IMG/VR virus record: IMGVR_UViG_3300049732_000090
Span: 1 to 39,362 of that record
From: a virus
Lineage: Duplodnaviria; Caudoviricetes
Direction: 5' to 3' (one strand)
Length of the DNA: 39,362 nt
Under the pieces are notes generated by a model that worked only from the letters and a program-made list of their open reading frames with translations, was not told where the DNA came from and did not search any database. A program made the translations under genes and the position numbers. Each line of letters opens with the position of its first letter. Positions within the stretch are counted from its first letter, which is position 1. Shown here piece by piece: positions 4,984-36,996 of this stretch.

Positions 4984-6300
4984 ATGGCAAATGTCTATGT
5001 CTATTCAGGCGCGGCAGGGGGTGGCACTGGCGCAGACTGGGCGAATGCTTACACGACCCTGTCAGCGGCATGCACTGCCAAAGTGGCAGGCGATACATTC
5101 TGGGTCGCGCATGATCATGCCGAGACGGCGGCGTCTAACGTGACCATCACATCACCCGGTACCGAGGCGACTCCGTGCCGCATTTACTGCGTCAATCGCG
5201 CCGGTAGCGTCCCGCCTGTATCGGCAGATTTGAGGACGACAGCCACGGTGACGGTGACAGGAGCCAGTACGCTTTCGCTTGCCGGCTCAATCGCTGAATG
5301 CAATGGCATCACCTTTCTGGCAGGTAGTTCAACGAATTCAAACACTCTGACTGTCAGCAGTTCAGGATCTCGGACGTGGCAACTTGTGAATTGCGCGTTA
5401 CGGTTGGGCGGAACAGGCGCCTCTGGACGCATTACTATCAGCACTGGGGCCTCTGCAGTTTTTCTGGAAAACACAACTGTTCAGTTTGCCAATGTCAGTC
5501 AGCGGCTTCTCTGCCAGGGCCGCATGATTTGGCGCAATACGGCATCCGCTGTCACCGGAGCTACAATCCCGACAGAATTGATGTCGTTCACCGGTTCGTT
5601 CACCGGTTCGTTTTACGGCGAAGGTATCGACCTGAGCGCTCTGGGTTCCGGCAAGTCGCTAGTCAGAGTTAGTGAGCTGGTTCCCAATCAAGCCATCTTC
5701 AAGGATTGCAAGCTCGGCGCATCAGTAACGGTCGCCGCCAATAATACGGTCGGCCCAGGCGGTGTCGAGGTGGCGCTGATACGCTGCGCCAGTGGCGACA
5801 CCAACTATCGTACCGAAAAATACACTTACGCTGGCACGCAAACCACTGAAACGACCATCGTGAGGAGCGGCGGAGCATCGGATGGTACGACACCAATCAG
5901 CACCAAGATCGTCACGACGGCGAATGCCGAATGGGAATTTCCGTTCGAATGCCTGCCGATCACAATCTGGAACGAGACGGTCGGCTCTGCTGTCACGGCG
6001 ACGATCGAAGGTATTTGGGGCACGGCTTCGGTGCCACTGAACAGCGACATCTGGATCGATGTCGAATATCTCGGCACCTCGGGGTTTCCTCTTGCATTGA
6101 AGGCGACCAGCGGCAAGGCGAGTGGACTTGCGGCAGGAACCAATATCCCGGCCGGCTCTGGCACTTGGGGCGGCTCGACCACCAAGTTCGCGATGAGCGT
6201 CACAATCACACCACAGGAGAAGGGACCGATCACAATCTACGTCAAGGCCGCCAAGATATCCTCGACATTCTATGTCGACCCCAAGCCGGTGATCACCTGA
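4984..6300 (+). CDS. Putative fibre/spike protein, beta-helix-like
   Basis: N-terminal YVYSGAAGGGTGADWANAYTTL motif typical of pectin-lyase-like folds; Ser/Thr/Gly-rich; visibly more A/T-ending codons than neighbouring genes. Confidence 0.65.
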   Translation: MANVYVYSGAAGGGTGADWANAYTTLSAACTAKVAGDTFWVAHDHAETAASNVTITSPGTEATPCRIYCVNRAGSVPPVSADLRTTATVTVTGASTLSLAGSIAECNGITFLAGSSTNSNTLTVSSSGSRTWQLVNCALRLGGTGASGRITISTGASAVFLENTTVQFANVSQRLLCQGRMIWRNTASAVTGATIPTELMSFTGSFTGSFYGEGIDLSALGSGKSLVRVSELVPNQAIFKDCKLGASVTVAANNTVGPGGVEVALIRCASGDTNYRTEKYTYAGTQTTETTIVRSGGASDGTTPISTKIVTTANAEWEFPFECLPITIWNETVGSAVTATIEGIWGTASVPLNSDIWIDVEYLGTSGFPLALKATSGKASGLAAGTNIPAGSGTWGGSTTKFAMSVTITPQEKGPITIYVKAAKISSTFYVDPKPVIT

Positions 6301-7025
6301 TGAGCCGCGAATACATCATTGGCGGGCCGTTTGGCGCGACATACGTCAGTGAAACCGCCGATCGTGAATTCAGTACGTCCGTCAGCTATGTCGCCGAGAC
6401 AAGCAGCGCTGGCGCTGTTTCAGTTACTGTCGCCGTCACCACCAATCTGGTCACCGCCTCAGTCGGCGATGTTTCGGCTGGCGTCAGGGCGATCGTTTCC
6501 GTCACCGGCGAGCAGATCGGCACCTCGGCGGGCAGTGTCAGCGTGGTCGGCAAGGCCAACGTTTCCGTCACCACCAACCTGCTGACTTCTGCAGTCGGTG
6601 ACGAGACCGTCGCAGCGGTCCAGACCGTCGTTGTCCCGGTCACCACCAATCTGCTGACCGCATCGGTCGGCACGGTTTCGGTAACAGCGAAGCAGGCGGT
6701 GACGGTGGCAGTCACCGGCGAGCAGCTGACAACAACCGTTGGCGGCGTTTCCGTCATGGCCGGCGGCTCGATCTCGGTCGGCGTGGCTGGCCAAGAACTC
6801 ACCACCGCAGTCGGGTCAGTCTCAGTCGCCATCGGCGTGCCGGTGCCTGTTCCCGAGCCGGATGACGGCGTCATCTTCATCGAGACTGAACCGCGACAGG
6901 TTCGCGCCTGGGTTCCGGTCCATGGCGTCCAGCTGAGGGTGCGCTGCGGCACCGTGAAGGTGCGGACGGAAAGCTTCGACCCGGTCGACATCGACAACGA
7001 TCTTGTCCTGCTAATGGCGGCATGA
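6300..7025 (+). CDS. Val/Thr-rich repeat protein (putative fibre shaft)
   Basis: ATG overlaps the TGA at 6300; six 22-24 aa repeats V.VT(TNL|GEQ)LT..VG.V.V. Confidence 0.7.
   Translation: MSREYIIGGPFGATYVSETADREFSTSVSYVAETSSAGAVSVTVAVTTNLVTASVGDVSAGVRAIVSVTGEQIGTSAGSVSVVGKANVSVTTNLLTSAVGDETVAAVQTVVVPVTTNLLTASVGTVSVTAKQAVTVAVTGEQLTTTVGGVSVMAGGSISVGVAGQELTTAVGSVSVAIGVPVPVPEPDDGVIFIETEPRQVRAWVPVHGVQLRVRCGTVKVRTESFDPVDIDNDLVLLMAA
6435..6830 (+). repeat. Six degenerate coding tandem repeats (66-72 bp period)
   Basis: Units begin at about 6435, 6501, 6567, 6639, 6711 and 6783 (GTCACCACCAAYCTG or GTCACCGGCGAGCAG; last unit more diverged). Confidence 0.8.
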
Positions 7026-30584: not shown

Positions 30585-30809
30585 ATGAACGACCTTATTC
30601 AGCACACCTTCGGTGCGCTTACCGACTTCAAACCCGAAGAGGCCAAAGCCATCGACGCCAAGGCCGATGCGCTCATCGCCTACGCCAAGAAGGTGAAGGA
30701 CTGGCCGCTGCTTGAAGAGGCGGTCGAGGTGAAGATCCAGAACCAGCGTGAATTCGTCAAATGGTGGGATGCCAATGTTCGAGGCAGAGGACAGCCTAAA
30801 AAGAAATAA
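30585..30809 (+). CDS. N-terminal segment of the Dam-like gene (frame 0)
   Basis: GGAGGA RBS; [29 protein letters not shown]; ends AAA AAG AAA TAA; protein-like sequence continues in the +1 frame. Confidence 0.65.
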
Positions 30810-31473
30810 CGCAGGACTGCGTTTTTTCTCGCTTGATGAAGCAGAAACGACTGCTGGCATCAAACAGCAGCAGGTCTCGCGCTGGCGCAATCGGCTGGCC
30901 AAGCCGGACAAATACCGGGACCAGCTCGTCGGCAGTCTGATGGCGCAAGCCATGGCCGAAAAAATGGAGCATCGCGTCGAGGCGAACTCCGGCGATTTCG
31001 AATGGTATACGCCGGCCGAATATATTCTGATGGCGCGAAACGTCCTTGGTGCCATCGACCTGGACCCGGCATCCAGCCATCTTGCCAACCGGACTGTGCA
31101 AGCCACCCGGTTCTTCTCATCCGAAACCAACGGCCTTGGCCACTCCTGGGACGGTAGGGTGTGGATGAATCCTCCCTATACCTACCCGCTGATTTCGCAA
31201 TTCGCCGAAAAGCTGGTCGAGGAATATCTGGCTGGTCACGTGACGGCTGCCGTCGTCCTCACCAACGACTGCACTGACACCGGATGGTTTCACACGCTGG
31301 CCACCGCATCGGCGGCACTATGCTTTCTTCGCGGCCGGATTCGCTTCGTGCGCCTGGACGGCGAGAAAAGCACACCCACGCAGGGCCAGACCTTTTTCTA
31401 TTTCGGCCAGGAGACTGACCGTTTCGCCAATGTGTTTGGCGATGCGGGCTTCATCGCGGAGGTGCGGCGATGA
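30805..31473 (+). CDS. DNA N6-adenine methyltransferase, phage Dam-like (start uncertain; +1 continuation of 30585)
   Basis: EWYTP..Y...AR.VLG.IDLDPAS; NGL...[10 protein letters not shown]; TDT.WF; GRIRF; HTH-like [11 protein letters not shown] upstream. Confidence 0.85.
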
Positions 31474-32078
31474 ACGCATACGACCATTGTCTGGAAATTG
31501 AACGGCGCGGCATCGAAATGCTGAAGCCGTTTCTTGACCGTGAATCGGATGGCCGGTGGCAACTGCTAAAGGGGAATCCGCAAGCGGAGCGATTGCAGAA
31601 AGAGTGCGGCGATGTGTTCCTCACATTGCCGAGCGGTCGGGCACCGTTTGTCGAAATCAAGGCGGAAGAAACTTACACCGGCAATCTGGTCTACGAAGAC
31701 TGGAGCAATGCCCGATTCCTGAATGATCCTGTCGGGCATCTGCGCGACGGCTCGACACCCGGCTGGTCATTGACGTGTCGTTCTGAAGTCTTGGCGAATG
31801 CATTTCTGGACCAGCGCATTGCCGTATTTTGCAAGACGGTGGACTTGCTTCGTTTCGCGAACGACCGACGCACTTACAAGTTTCTGTCGCCGCCACTTCC
31901 GCAACGGAAACATACGCAGCGCAACCTGACCGTTATCCGGCTCGTGCTGTTGAAGGAATTTCGGAAGTATTTTCCGGTTCACTCCTATCGGGTCGACCAA
32001 GGTCTTCTCTTTCCTGAAGACCTGCTCGCCATTCATCAACTTGTTGATGAAGGCCAAGTCGCGTGGCACCGGCCATGA
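31470..32078 (+). CDS. PD-(D/E)xK-like nuclease candidate
   Basis: LQK..GD.......VEIKAE...TGNL.YE.WSN.......TPGW; ATGA-coupled to the MTase. Confidence 0.55.
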   Translation: MNAYDHCLEIERRGIEMLKPFLDRESDGRWQLLKGNPQAERLQKECGDVFLTLPSGRAPFVEIKAEETYTGNLVYEDWSNARFLNDPVGHLRDGSTPGWSLTCRSEVLANAFLDQRIAVFCKTVDLLRFANDRRTYKFLSPPLPQRKHTQRNLTVIRLVLLKEFRKYFPVHSYRVDQGLLFPEDLLAIHQLVDEGQVAWHRP

Positions 32079-32590
32079 CCCCCTCCTGGGATCCTTCCCT
32101 CGTGGCGCAGCTGGTGTCGGCCGGCTGCAATGCGCGCGCCATTTCGGTGGTCTTCGGGCTGTCGAAGAACGCCGTGCTGGGAAGGCTGCACCGCGACAAG
32201 CAGTTGAACAAGCTGTGGACGGACAAGGTCGCAGCGGAGCGGCCACGGCGCAAGAAATACAAGCCGGCGCCTGTGCGGAAGACGATCGTTCCGCCTCCGG
32301 AATTATCGGATCCGCCATCGGCCAAAAAGGTCACCGCCGACTGGGGCGCCTGGGAGGAACGCGAAGGGAAAAAGCGCGCCATGGAAGTCAAGATGCACCC
32401 GGCCAAGCCGCATATGCTGCGGGTGCCGCTGCTCAACCTCGGCGCCAATCAATGCCGCTGGCCGGTGGAAGAGGCGGTGGTGACGGGTGGGTATCTTTTT
32501 TGTGCGGCGTCCACGGAGTTCGGTCAGACCTATTGCCGCTATCACCGATCCAAAAGCCTTGCAGGAAAACGCGATGAGCCAAAAAATTGA
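32075..32590 (+). CDS. gcrA: GcrA-like transcriptional regulator
   Basis: W......L...G..A..I....G.SKNAVLG.LHR at the N-terminus; LL.L...QCRWP......FC.......TYC.YH at the C-terminus. Confidence 0.85.
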
Positions 32591-33104
32591 CATGCTGGGT
32601 CAACGCATCGGTCGTCTGCTCGTGATGCAGGATGCTGGTGCCGACGCTTCCGGCAGGACGCAATGGTTCTGCCGCTGCGATTGCGGGGAACAGAAGGTCA
32701 TCAAAGGAAAATATTTGCGCAATGGCGACACGCAGTCGTGCGGCTGTCTGCACCGTGACGGTGTGCAAAAACTGATGACGACGCACGGCGCGACAGTGAA
32801 CCATCAATGGCGGCCGGAATATCGAACCTGGGCGAACATCAAGACCCGCTGCCTCAATCCGCAATTCAAGGACTTCCACTATTACGGCGGCCGTGGCGTC
32901 AAGGTCTGCGACCGGTGGCGCGACAGCTTCGAAGCCTTCTTTGAGGACATGGGTCCAAAGCCTTCGCCAGGGCTGACCATCGACCGTGTGGATCCGTATG
33001 GAGACTACAAGCCGGGCAACTGCCGGTGGGCGACATGGTCGGAGCAGGCCCGCAACAAGCGGTTTCACAAGGCAAGGGCGCTGGCGAAGGGTGGCGTGGG
33101 ATGA
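32574..33104 (+). CDS. HNH-type homing endonuclease, paralogue of 11200-11934
   Basis: GQR.GRL.V...WFC.CDCG...SCGC; EYR.W..IK.RC.NP....YYGGRG.KVC.RW..SF..F..DMG..P...[15 protein letters not shown]. Confidence 0.82.
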
Positions 33105-33904
33105 TCCGGCGGCAAGAGCAAATCGGCGATTGCCGGCTCATCCTCGGTGACTGTCTGGATGTCATTCCGACATTGAAGGCGATCGACGCCGTAATTACCG
33201 ATCCACCCTATAGCAGCGGCGGCATGTTTCGCGGCGACCGCGCCTATCTGCGGACATCAACGAAATACGTTCAGTCCGGCAGCATCTTCAAAGCAGAATT
33301 TTCCGGCGACAATCGCGATCAACGCGCGTTTCTGGCGTGGTCGACGATCTGGCTGGGCCGCTTGCTGCAAGCGTCAAAGCCCGGCGCCGTGTGCATGGTT
33401 TTCACCGATTGGCGCCAACTACCGACGATGACGGATGCCGTGCAATGCGGCGGCTGGGTCTGGCGCAATCTGGTCACGTGGTGGAAACCGGGCATCCGCA
33501 TGCAGCGCGGCCGGTTCTCATCGTCAGCCGAATATATCGTCTATGCGTCCAACGGCATGCCGGCAGATGGCGAACAATCGCCGCAGAACGTGATGATGTT
33601 CGCGCCGGTCGCCGGCGAGGACAAGGAGCACATTGCCGAGAAGCCGAAAGCGCTGCTGCAGGAGCTTGTCAGCGTCACAATTCCCGGCGCGCTGGTCGTG
33701 GATCCATTCATGGGATCGGGCACCACTGGCTTGGCTTGTGTCCAGTCGGGGCGGCGGTTCATCGGCATTGAGCTGGACGAGCATAGTTTTGACCAGGCGT
33801 GCAATCGTATTAGCCAGGCTTATGCACAACCGGACTTTTTCGTGCGCCAACAAGCACCGACGCAGCCGAGATTGCCGGGATTGGAACAGGTGGCCACCGC
33901 ATGA
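33101..33904 (+). CDS. DNA amino-methyltransferase (N6A/N4C, beta order)
   Basis: [32 protein letters not shown].....R.FIGIE. Confidence 0.92.
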
Positions 33905-34305
33905 ACCACCAGCTCCACCTGTTCACCCGACGAAAGGCCCGCAAGCTGCCGCCGGCAAAGGAGTTTGCCACCCACTGCGCTGTTGCAGACCTGCTGCGTG
34001 TGTCGCTTAGTCCTGGCTGGATCTGGTTTCACTATCCGGCCGGTGAAAACCGCGATGCCAGGACCGGCGCACGGCTCAAGAGAATGGGCACCAAGGCCGG
34101 CGTTGCCGACTTCCTTTTCATTAGCCCGCCCAATGGCTTGTTCCATGCGCTTGAGCTAAAGCGCGGCAACCTTAAACCAACGCCTGAACAGCTTGAGTTT
34201 CTGCATCAGGTGAAAGCGGCGGGCGGAAAAGCCAACTGGTGCAACAGCTTCGACGGCGCGGTTGCGGTGCTCAAGCATTGGGGCGCTTTGAGGGTGGCTC
34301 AATGA
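33901..34305 (+). CDS. VRR-NUC domain nuclease
   Basis: WFH.PAGE.R....GA.LKRMG..AGVAD.......LELK......T.EQ..F. Confidence 0.85.
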   Translation: MNHQLHLFTRRKARKLPPAKEFATHCAVADLLRVSLSPGWIWFHYPAGENRDARTGARLKRMGTKAGVADFLFISPPNGLFHALELKRGNLKPTPEQLEFLHQVKAAGGKANWCNSFDGAVAVLKHWGALRVAQ

Positions 34306-35798
34306 TGCGCGTGCTCGACCTGTTCAGCGGCATCGGCGGCTTCAGCCTCGGTCTTGAAAGAACCGGCGGCTTCCGCACGGTCGCCTTCTGCGAGATCGAG
34401 CCTTATTGCCAAAAGGTGCTGGCGAAACATTGGCCTGGGGTGAAATGCTATGACGATGTCCGAAGCCTTTCAGCCGCTGCTCTGGCCAGAGACGGAATTG
34501 CCGTCGATGTCATCTGCGGCGGCTTTCCGTGCCAGGACATTTCCGCAGCTGGACGGGGTGCCGGGATCGACGGCGAGCGGTCGGGACTATGGTCGGAGTT
34601 CGCCCGACTTATTGGCGAGATACGACCGCGCTACGCGATCATCGAAAATGTCTCAAACCTTAGAAGCGGCTTCACCGTTCATGAACGGTGGCATGACCGC
34701 TGCCTATGTGGCTGGGCTTATCGATGGCGAAGGGTGTCTGTACATCGTCAGGCGGAAGAAGTGGTTCTATCCGCGTCTCGATCTCGCAATGGCGGACAAG
34801 GCTCTGCCGCTCTTGCAGAAGCTGCATCACCAGTTTGGCGGGAGCCTCAATCTCCATCGCAAGGCAACGGAACGGTGGGACGGAGCGCATCGCTGGGCGC
34901 TGATGGGCCAGCCTCTGCGGGAGTTGCTGACGAACTGTCTGCCCTTCTTTCAGGTGAAGAAGAGGCAGGCAGAACTATGCCTGAATTTGAACCCCAGGGA
35001 TGCGGAGACGATCAGGGCGCTGCTTACCGAATTGAACCGCAAGGGACCACCTGTGACGCAGGAGGCAGGGTGGTTTGCCCGGCGTGTGGGCGACCAGTGG
35101 CTGACGCCGCAGCAGAACTTCATCGATCCTACTGGTTTCACCGTGTTCTCGGAGACCTGGCCGAGATCGGGTATGACGCAGAATGGCACTGCATACCGGC
35201 TGCCGCCGTTGGCGCCCCTCACCGACGCGACCGGGTCTGGATTGTGGCCTACGCCCAACCTGCCCAACGGCGGCAGGACGCTGCACCATGTGGACGAATG
35301 GCGGGGCAACAGCGCCTATCACAAGGGCAAGAAGGTGCAGGTGGATCTGAACCAGGCAGTGAAGATGCTGCCGACGCCCAGGCCGTGTTCAGGGCTTCGT
35401 TCGTCAGGTGCGAACCGGACAGAGATCATGCGCGCTCTGGAGAAATGGCCGACGCCCAGGACCTTCGCGGCAATGGGAACGACCTTCACCGAGGAATCGC
35501 TGGGCAGGCTGGCAGCGAGGGCGCCCGAAAAGAAAAACCTGGAGGAACTGGTGGCGGCCAGACTGCTGCCGACGCCCACTGTGCAGGATGCGTCGAACAA
35601 TGGCGGCCCCTCCCAGTACGAGCGGAACTCCTTGCCGCTCAATGCGGTGATTGGTGGCGCACTGAACCCGCTGTGGGTAGAGTGGCTCATGGGGTTCCCT
35701 CTCGCGTGGACCGACTTAGCAGCCTCGGCAATGCTGTCGTCCCGCAAATCCCGGAGCTGATCGGCCGCGCCATCCTGGCGAGGGAGGCGGCGGGATGA
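34302..35798 (+). CDS. C5-cytosine DNA methyltransferase, large polypeptide (motifs I-VIII and X) with a ~150-aa insert
   Basis: LDLFSGIGG (I), GGFPCQD (IV), IIENV (VI), GAPHRRDR.W (VIII), LGNAVVP (X); no motif IX in this frame. Confidence 0.9.
   Translation: MMRVLDLFSGIGGFSLGLERTGGFRTVAFCEIEPYCQKVLAKHWPGVKCYDDVRSLSAAALARDGIAVDVICGGFPCQDISAAGRGAGIDGERSGLWSEFARLIGEIRPRYAIIENVSNLRSGFTVHERWHDRCLCGWAYRWRRVSVHRQAEEVVLSASRSRNGGQGSAALAEAASPVWREPQSPSQGNGTVGRSASLGADGPASAGVADELSALLSGEEEAGRTMPEFEPQGCGDDQGAAYRIEPQGTTCDAGGRVVCPACGRPVADAAAELHRSYWFHRVLGDLAEIGYDAEWHCIPAAAVGAPHRRDRVWIVAYAQPAQRRQDAAPCGRMAGQQRLSQGQEGAGGSEPGSEDAADAQAVFRASFVRCEPDRDHARSGEMADAQDLRGNGNDLHRGIAGQAGSEGARKEKPGGTGGGQTAADAHCAGCVEQWRPLPVRAELLAAQCGDWWRTEPAVGRVAHGVPSRVDRLSSLGNAVVPQIPELIGRAILAREAAG
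34450..35760 (+). CDS. Nested +1-frame polypeptide: MTase small subunit (motif IX, xPTP repeats) containing a LAGLIDADG domain
   Basis: 436 open codons; AYVAGLIDGEG; ETWPRSG; four (W/L)PTP units; LNPLWVEWLMGFP..WT is motif IX-like. Confidence 0.8.
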   Translation: MTMSEAFQPLLWPETELPSMSSAAAFRARTFPQLDGVPGSTASGRDYGRSSPDLLARYDRATRSSKMSQTLEAASPFMNGGMTAAYVAGLIDGEGCLYIVRRKKWFYPRLDLAMADKALPLLQKLHHQFGGSLNLHRKATERWDGAHRWALMGQPLRELLTNCLPFFQVKKRQAELCLNLNPRDAETIRALLTELNRKGPPVTQEAGWFARRVGDQWLTPQQNFIDPTGFTVFSETWPRSGMTQNGTAYRLPPLAPLTDATGSGLWPTPNLPNGGRTLHHVDEWRGNSAYHKGKKVQVDLNQAVKMLPTPRPCSGLRSSGANRTEIMRALEKWPTPRTFAAMGTTFTEESLGRLAARAPEKKNLEELVAARLLPTPTVQDASNNGGPSQYERNSLPLNAVIGGALNPLWVEWLMGFPLAWTDLAASAMLSSRKSRS

Positions 35799-36334
35799 GC
35801 TACATTCCCTTCCTGCCAGTAGACTGGCGCGATGAACTTCGGAAGCTCTATTGGGAGACCGATACGCCGGAAGACGAACTGGTCATTCGCTATCGCCTTA
35901 GCTCGCATGCTTCCGTTGTTTATCATGCAGGCCCGGTGGGCTGGGATGACATATGCTGCAAGCGCTGTCATCGGCCGCTGGAGATCAAAACACGCAATGA
36001 GTTGAAACAACTTCTCGCCAGAAGGCGTCCGGCTCTGTGCTTCTACTGTCAAATATTTCGTCGGGATGAGGAGGTTGAGGAAACCCGTCTAACCGACCTG
36101 GCGGAAATGCCTTATTCGGACTATCTGCAGACACCGGAGTGGCAGGAGGTGCGGAAGGCGGCGCTGGAGCGGGCCAACTATCGTTGCCAGGTTTGCAATG
36201 CCGCAGTGCCGCTGGACGTCCACCACCGGACCTATGAGCGGCGTGGCCATGAGCATGCCAACGATGTGATCGCGCTCTGCCGTGAGTGCCACGAGGTTTT
36301 CCACCACCATCGACAGATTGCGAGGCCCGACTAG
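35795..36334 (+). CDS. HNH endonuclease with N-terminal Zn finger
   Basis: Y.DYL.T.EW...R...L.R..Y.CQVC.....LDVHHRTY...G.E...D...LC..CH...H. Confidence 0.85.
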   Translation: MSYIPFLPVDWRDELRKLYWETDTPEDELVIRYRLSSHASVVYHAGPVGWDDICCKRCHRPLEIKTRNELKQLLARRRPALCFYCQIFRRDEEVEETRLTDLAEMPYSDYLQTPEWQEVRKAALERANYRCQVCNAAVPLDVHHRTYERRGHEHANDVIALCRECHEVFHHHRQIARPD

Positions 36335-36336
36335 CC

Positions 36337-36996
36337 ATGGCCCGCAAGAAGATTCCGCACTTCAAGCTCTACATCGACGATTTCATGAACGGCACCAAGG
36401 ACATGTCCGACGAGCAGGTGGGCATCTACATCCGCATGCTGTGCCAGATTTACGACGATGGCGGGGCCACGGACTTCAACCCGAAGAAGCTGAAAAATGT
36501 GCTGCATTGCCGGCCGACGGACGCCGAGAAGAAGGTGCGGCAACTGATTGGGCTGGGCAAGCTGTTCATCGACGACAACGGTCGAATTCACAATGGCCGG
36601 GCGGACGAAGAGGTCGAAAAGCGATCGTTGTGGCTGGGCCGGAAGTCGCTGGCGCAGCAAAAGCGCAAAGCCAGGATTATGGCTCAAATGGCGGCTGAAT
36701 TGGCCGCAAATGAAGCCAGAAAGTGCCCGGAAAAGCCAACGAAAACAAATGGTGATGGTGCATACGCTACGCGCGACTCCCGTACCAGTAAAGATAGTTC
36801 TGATATGGTAGCACCTAGCTTCCACGCGAAAACCGGAGAAGACGGCGCTTCGGCGCCGGACGTCGCGCTCTGCCTGAAGGGCAGCGCGCCGCCGTCGCCT
36901 CACGGGATGAATGCTACGGGACCGCCGCGCGATCCCTTCGCTGCTCTCAACCAACGTCGCGCCCAACGCGGCCAACCACCCGTCGAAAGGAACTGA
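36337..36996 (+). CDS. DUF1376/YdaU-like replication initiator
   Basis: PHFKLYIDDF..GT..MS.EQ.G.YIR.LC..YD; I.N.RAD.E. Confidence 0.82.
   Translation: MARKKIPHFKLYIDDFMNGTKDMSDEQVGIYIRMLCQIYDDGGATDFNPKKLKNVLHCRPTDAEKKVRQLIGLGKLFIDDNGRIHNGRADEEVEKRSLWLGRKSLAQQKRKARIMAQMAAELAANEARKCPEKPTKTNGDGAYATRDSRTSKDSSDMVAPSFHAKTGEDGASAPDVALCLKGSAPPSPHGMNATGPPRDPFAALNQRRAQRGQPPVERN

Follow-up and report, generated by a model that had tools for sequence, protein, structure and literature searches.

How might a phage methyltransferase carry a homing endonuclease inside its conserved core and still work? A homing endonuclease that sits in a gene normally depends on an intron or an intein to spare the host protein, and the few non-splicing cases so far have been explained only as tolerated. 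The locus considered here lies in a 39,362-base linear virus record (the window, by which we mean the whole stretch of DNA that was analysed). We assigned the window to a temperate tailed phage because it holds capsid, portal, tape-measure, integrase, RecT and repressor genes. In our reading, a mobile LAGLIDADG element sits, likely unspliced, in a two-frame phage C5 methyltransferase gene, and four cysteines of the host frame likely bind one zinc ion, closing a 121-residue passenger into a loop. Closing the loop would leave the helices of motifs VI and VII able to pack and the enzyme able to function. We put the probability of this whole account, the clasp role included, at roughly 0.65 on sequence evidence. 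The features of the locus are collected in Table 1.

Table 1. Features of the methyltransferase locus in window coordinates; the motif numbers of alpha are our own assignment to its positions.
Feature	Coordinates	Strand	Remarks
Alpha subunit ORF, C5 cytosine methyltransferase	34305..35798	+	497 aa, frame 0; Pfam PF00145, E 1e-40
Alpha motifs	I 34320; IV 34524; VI (ENV) 34644; VII 35157; VIII 35211; X 35724		no motif IX
Beta ORF: leader, LAGLIDADG domain, beta core with PTP repeats and motif IX	34450..35760	+	436 aa, +1 frame
Mobile insertion in motif VI-VII loop	34671..35132	+	about 462 nt; ends approximate
18-nt perfect palindrome, ATG 34681 in hairpin loop	34673..34690	+	window allele only
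Single-motif LAGLIDADG endonuclease	34681..35046	+	+1 frame; Pfam PF00961, 23.5 bits (cut-off 23.1)
Possible own ATG of nuclease	34681 or 34693
First Cys pair, CLCG	34701..34712	+	frame 0; overprinted on first codons of LAGLIDADG helix
Passenger loop, 121 aa	34713..35075	+	frame 0; predicted disordered
Predicted catalytic residues of nuclease	Glu 34729-34731; Lys 34957-34959		active-site residues from the accessible text of PMC2655683
Rebuilt beta-core start (FARRVGDQWLTPQ)	35074..35112	+	+1 frame; degenerate copy of beta segment overlapping motif VI in empty alleles
Second Cys pair, CPACG	35076..35090	+	frame 0
Motif IX on beta (LNPLWVEWLMGFP)	35662..35700	+	+1 frame; beta profile match to canonical motif IX

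The host methyltransferase

The beta ORF lies entirely within the alpha ORF. According to the accessible text of PMC2836561, M.EcoHK31I consists of an alpha that bears motifs I-VIII plus X and a beta that bears motif IX, encoded within alpha in another frame, and the window gene shares this arrangement. Motif IX was in frame in 0 of 106 comparison alphas, and a motif IX-like pattern was present in 59 of the 80 beta ORFs from the viral loci nearest the alpha N-terminus. In single-chain relatives, the beta-core profile aligned with the canonical motif IX immediately preceding motif X; the beta core itself matched phrog_1008, a DNA methyltransferase family (E 2e-20). No match was found for this profile among PDB sequences, the ESM Atlas held only unnamed viral clusters for the beta core, and a profile comparison of alpha with beta gave an empty result. 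Alleles lacking the insert (empty alleles) also keep the beta core and carry a conserved +1 ORF, indicating that the host gene was two-framed before any insertion. The motif content confirmed the host as a predicted two-frame C5 methyltransferase of the M.EcoHK31I type, with alpha in frame 0 and beta, bearing motif IX, in +1. By analogy with M.EcoHK31I, alpha and beta would assemble into one enzyme. Unlike that bacterial system, for which the accessible text describes no mobile insert, the methyltransferase here holds one. Overlapped beta ORFs were common across phage C5 methyltransferases (L151-L230), and Pfam has no model for them.

The catalytic PC was kept in 50 of 51 alphas that carry the insert (filled alleles). 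The predicted model of alpha aligned with M.HhaI over 209 residues (Z 24.7, rmsd 2.6). AlphaFold2 gave high confidence for the core of alpha and less than 50 for the passenger, with strands 123-128 and 271-276 leading to the Cys pairs; this core fold rests partly on 40 comparison proteins in the alignment, nearly all of them empty alleles, and is not proof of tolerance. Structure prediction of a short form gave an unreliable model (pTM 0.29).

Three methyltransferase genes lie within 5 kb of one another (Dam-like, 30748-31473; N6/N4, 33104-33904; C5, 34305-35798), and a GcrA-like gene (32063-32590) adjoins them, presumably pointing to an alphaproteobacterial host. The ORFs at 32571-33104 and 31470-32078 had no Pfam match at E<=0.05; the former has Cys pairs and, judged by eye, an HNH-like look. 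Elsewhere in the window, two long ORFs on the same strand (4984-6300 and 5931-7025) overlap by 370 nt, with no PHROG match for either.

The insertion and its nuclease

Frames 0 and +1 were without a stop from 34665 to 35135, whereas the third frame had 10 stops. An earlier sequence-only reading of the window had described these two open frames and a LAGLIDADG protein in +1, and both were borne out, with AYVAGLIDGEG at 34702-34734 and LNRKG at 35032-35046, each in +1. Alignment with insert-free alleles, as that reading had proposed, gave the approximate ends of the insertion, whose length was 441-462 nt against the three commonest empty length classes. A contig of the independent run X11 spans 34248-35579 with zero differences, and the insert is therefore no assembly artefact.

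Among solved structures, the nuclease was closest to I-MsoI (E 5e-7); we take I-MsoI and I-CreI to be intron-encoded themselves. An acidic residue closes the LAGLIDADG motif and the domain is of I-CreI size, as in a single-motif homing endonuclease. The accessible text of PMC2655683 gives the active site of I-MsoI as Asp22, Gln50 and Lys104, to which Glu, Met and Lys correspond in the window. Like I-MsoI and I-CreI, the element's nuclease has one motif per chain, an acidic residue corresponding to Asp22 and a Lys corresponding to Lys104, and the Glu and the Lys were each present in 23 of 23 alleles. Unlike I-MsoI, it has a near-invariant Met in place of Gln50, and for this reason nuclease activity is not assured.

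The single nuclease sequence had no match when searched directly against viral contigs, and alignment queries were needed; tblastn of the frame-0 passenger against phages also gave no match. One search returned 64 matches, most spanning the nuclease and the 3' flank, of which 40 were aligned. In 19 of 26 alleles, among them the window allele, nuclease and beta core formed one fused ORF, and in 7 of 26 the nuclease ended in a stop adjoining a new beta start codon. Trp was kept by the rebuilt copy of the beta segment in 21 of 23 alleles, while the original copy had it in 62 of 79 empty alleles versus 1 of 26 filled ones. These alignments show the 3' end of the element rebuilding, in the predicted protein, the beta segment displaced by the insertion.

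A purine-rich patch preceded a start 3-8 codons upstream of the motif in 12 of 24 alleles, by a loose pattern with no chance control. In the window allele, the loose pattern found no ribosome-binding site before the nuclease ATG, and there was no promoter-like site. The palindrome was considered as a conserved control hairpin and rejected as not conserved; in the window allele only, its hairpin could damp translation. An 11-nt direct repeat (34668/35134, spacing 466) was considered as a signal for ribosome hopping. This was also rejected, because hopping there would fuse alpha to beta without motifs VII-VIII and because none of 23 other alleles has an equal repeat.

Mobility of the element

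Of the 80 viral loci nearest the alpha N-terminus, 79 had no insert, and the single filled locus (L175) is the contig of L003. In phage DotProduct, the flanks of the insert shared 98.8% and 96.5% identity with Batiatus, which has an empty allele, compared to 68% and 76% with Gordonia phage Ailee; the insert region itself, an additional 486 nt relative to Batiatus, was 84% identical to the insert of Ailee. In a tree of the alpha core (126 rows), filled and empty alleles were interleaved, with 11 changes. A single clade of filled alleles was rejected (p-AU 1e-84) in a test on 41 of the 126 rows, hand-picked after the first tree had been seen and with empty alleles sampled mostly near the window. 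These data indicate that the element almost certainly moves between methyltransferase alleles. We infer that it would spread by homing, with a homodimeric nuclease cutting the empty allele.

Related LAGLIDADG elements were found elsewhere in C5 methyltransferases (L060:2003, L063:497, L068:2000, L107:236 and L130:683), out of frame and without Cys pairs. These other insertions lie either in the interval from motif III to motif IV or past motif VIII, and frame 0 was open in 5 of 6 such loci and broken in L107. Single-chain alphas with a canonical motif IX were invaded at the same site as the window gene (L055:1515-3068, P0195, P0200, P0213, P0225 and P0231); the +1 frame of L055 ends in a different conserved tail, which is shared with P0019, P0021, P0028 and P0043. 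Gordonia phage Whitney gp80 (L232:1116-1979) is a decayed allele in which pair 1 and most of the nuclease are left and the 3' end and motifs VII-VIII are gone.

As an alternative, the sequence-only reading had suggested that a nuclease-methyltransferase fusion could act as a compact self/non-self system, which would make the pair a domesticated, restriction-like unit. The in-frame fusion of nuclease to beta in most alleles and the retained catalytic PC would fit such a unit. However, patchy spread, transfer between hosts, a separate nuclease ORF in 7 of 26 alleles, repeated loss of the nuclease and the use of several sites fit a selfish element, and, according to PMC9957025, the sites of LAGLIDADG enzymes are long and no restriction system is described as using one. 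We regard this alternative as unsupported and highly improbable.

The two cysteine pairs

Both Cys pairs were confirmed in frame 0 at the positions first reported for them. Hydrophobic residues make up 19% of the passenger that they bracket versus 33% of the core. When the +1 frame of the window allele was reshuffled synonymously, only 1 of 20,000 reshuffles kept frame 0 open with both pairs; thus, this combination is not due to chance. No Cys pair was present between motifs VI and VIII in any of the 79 empty alleles.

For the key test, loci were collected through the +1 frame alone, identical copies were dropped, and frame 0 was then read. This sample comprised 139 motif sites: 26 occupied the motif VI-VII loop, 6 lay in methyltransferase genes at other positions, and 107 were elsewhere. 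Frame 0 was open over 100 codons in all 26 alleles compared to 3 of the 107 other LAGLIDADG sites (3 of 31 at GC>=0.5). Both Cys pairs were present in 25 of the 26, L053 having lost both; the alleles share ancestry, and these counts are not independent events. The nuclease frames were 26-59% identical among alleles.

The pairs could instead be a by-product of nuclease or beta codons or of a nucleotide signal, with the passenger just tolerated, as proposed for the published ShiLan insertion. CLCG is indeed written over the Ala-Tyr-Val codons of AYVAG, and pair 1 arose by chance in 7 of the 107 control sites. However, the deciding bases are synonymous in +1. The two synonymous positions that make pair 1 were T in 24 of 26 alleles each; in GC-matched controls the counts were 5 of 31 for one and 14 of 28 for the other, and comparable positions within the element gave 40 of 134. 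Cysteine is encoded by TGT as well as TGC, and the register shifts: CxC has become CxxC in L051, L057 and L059, and where the Tyr codon has changed (L051 and L057) the next codon gives the Cys. For pair 2, the +1 residues that it overprints differ from allele to allele and are unrelated. Synonymous recoding of +1 in 24 alleles gave an expectation of 0.41 alleles with an open frame 0 and 0.28 with both pairs, and 24 and 23 were observed, which largely refutes the by-product explanation and leaves it scarcely credible. Taken together, these comparisons indicate that the Cys pairs are very probably under selection in frame 0 and not a shadow of nuclease codons. If the cysteines are selected in the host protein, the passenger must be translated. 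The Tyr codon that makes Cys was found in 0 of the 6 insertions at other methyltransferase sites; absence of the pairs there is what one would expect if a clasp mattered only within the catalytic core.

A wider sample was drawn with a profile of the frame-0 insert, which gave 76 representatives. Proteins with the insert elsewhere (4), no motif VIII match (13) or no motif VI (6) were dropped, and 53 were kept. Both pairs were present in 47 (46 by script and P0191 by eye), neither in 5 and a single pair in 1; the profile was built from Cys-bearing alleles and favours such alleles, so that the 5 without pairs are a floor. A clasp would not always be needed, since the 5 of 53 proteins and the 1 of 26 loci that have neither pair still look intact. 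Homologues with and without the LAGLIDADG domain were compared, as had been suggested for this locus, and the short forms L038, P0231 and P0244 have kept both pairs after loss of the nuclease; an in-frame nuclease deletion is seen in the DNA of L038, and P0231 and P0244 were judged by length. About 25 residues separate the pairs in P0244. P0235 and P0243 have no end pairs and hold CxxC and CCxC clusters within the passenger, possibly a second metal site.

Splicing

Inteins have a Hint domain, a Cys or Ser start, and a His-Asn end before Cys, Ser or Thr. No intein end of the form [HKF][NQ][CST] was found in frame 0 or +1 across the insert, in agreement with what had been noted from the window alone, and Pfam gave no Hint domain match. 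Removal or cutting of the passenger at the protein level by a non-canonical, Cys-dependent reaction would account for conserved Cys at both ends and for short forms that resemble mini-inteins. That scheme is at odds with the missing end motif and Hint match, with the disordered passenger and with P0244, whose pairs are too close together to hold a splicing domain; we consider it extremely improbable.

Rfam gave no match on 33500-36500 at E<=1. The insert is coding in two frames throughout, and the earlier statement that there is little non-coding room for a group I core was borne out. No conserved RNA fold was detected at either insert end or between them (mean z 0.19, -0.33 and -0.51 in 24 alleles), and the fold of the whole insert was ordinary (z -0.9). 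In RNA run X13, the 5' junction is spanned, unspliced, by one contig of 151 nt; this is weak evidence, as DNA or precursor could be its source. In GenBank, Ailee gene 4 is a join of two pieces and the Inspectinfecti gene is whole with a nested endonuclease; no experiment was found behind either annotation. A compact, unrecognised self-splicing intron would agree with the Ailee join, and small unorthodox phage introns do exist (BAKA, PMC11855218). However, an intron has no need of an open host frame, yet the frame is open in 26 of 26 alleles with selection on its Cys, and the Rfam, folding and X13 results also argue against an intron, which we consider very unlikely. We hold with good confidence, from these sequence data, that the insert is not removed from RNA or protein.

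Proposed mechanism

In the mechanism that we favor, overlapping alpha (frame 0) and beta (+1, with motif IX) would form the enzyme, and the element would move between alleles by homing into the empty ones. The +1 nuclease would be made either fused to the beta core or stopping beside a new beta start, with the 3' end of the element supplying the beta segment again. Frame 0 would stay open with both Cys pairs selected in it, and neither RNA nor protein would be spliced. The last step, zinc binding, would give the pairs their clasp role.

The four cysteines are likely to bind zinc. They might, in an unspliced element, bind metal for some other job, such as an alpha-alpha zinc hook, docking of either beta or nuclease, binding of DNA or redox switching. 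Conservation reports selection on the Cys and not geometry, six alleles persist without the pairs, and the Cys clusters of P0235 and P0243 lie inside the passenger, all of which would suit another job. However, one pair stands at each end of the passenger, pair 1 about 15-26 residues after motif VI and pair 2 mostly 42-47 before motif VIII, whatever the loop length. In addition, loss affects both pairs at once, insertions outside the VI-VII loop have no pairs, and empty enzymes need none. We therefore consider another metal job unlikely. The zinc clasp, which the sequence-only reading had put forward, stood insofar as empty alleles lack the pairs and filled alleles select them in frame 0; the 5 of 53 alleles without both pairs count against it.

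Relation to known systems

Actinophage ShiLan (2025, PMC11855218) carries a non-splicing, out-of-frame HNH endonuclease in a methylase, and its passenger was proposed to loop out. As in ShiLan, the element here is a homing-type nuclease in the other frame of a phage methylase, with the host frame open and no intron or intein signal. Unlike in ShiLan, where no host-frame Cys clasp or overlapped beta was described, the nuclease is a LAGLIDADG protein. The ShiLan methylase pham includes Taj_79, an N6/N4-type sequence, whereas the host here is a C5 enzyme. In Taj_79 (Gosselin et al. 2023, PMC9957025), a lone in-frame LAGLIDADG sits within an actinophage methylase and no splicing apparatus accompanies it; lodging in a phage methylase without such apparatus is what the two have in common. 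In Taj_79, however, the LAGLIDADG is in frame with an amino-methyltransferase, forms its own folded domain and has little evidence of transfer, whereas the present element occupies another frame of a C5 enzyme and shows transfer between hosts. DotProduct and Ailee are absent from the supplement of PMC9957025.

According to the accessible text of Crona et al. (2010, PMC3045599), tails derived from the mobE element rescue a split NrdA. Rescue of a host protein by element-derived peptide sequence without splicing is what we propose here as well. The nrdA gene is split, giving two tailed chains, whereas the methyltransferase would be one chain with a loop closed by Cys. Out-of-frame nucleases inside inteins are the subject, as far as their accessible text goes, of bioRxiv 2025.01.02.630785 and 10.64898/2026.09.14.751524.

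In the literature covered, which lay mostly outside subscription journals, no report of the Cys clasp or of the element was found, and no published study of the element was found under Gordonia phage names or DotProduct. The clasp is the new part of our account; non-splicing, out-of-frame nucleases in phage methylases have already been published (PMC11855218). To call the locus an undescribed system, as had been done from the window alone, was too strong, as similar insertions are in print and GenBank holds members from cultured phages with a nested endonuclease annotation.

Significance

We think it somewhat better than an even chance that, alongside RNA splicing and protein splicing, the element represents a third means by which a homing endonuclease can persist in the conserved core of an enzyme. 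An element-borne zinc clasp, written in the host frame over the catalytic helix of the nuclease, would close a passenger of whatever length into a loop that does no harm, and the element would also rebuild the beta start. The clasp would outlive the nuclease as a "mini" element, leaving the host with a new zinc module. This proposed, specific rescue device leaves a measurable signal of selection in about 50 protein clusters, from actinophages to uncultured phages, and near-identical cultured phages with filled and empty alleles exist in DotProduct and Batiatus. Protein engineering would also profit from a portable four-Cys clasp that lets an enzyme core take long insertions. For the phages themselves, the case would be one in which overprinted junk has become a selected structural module.
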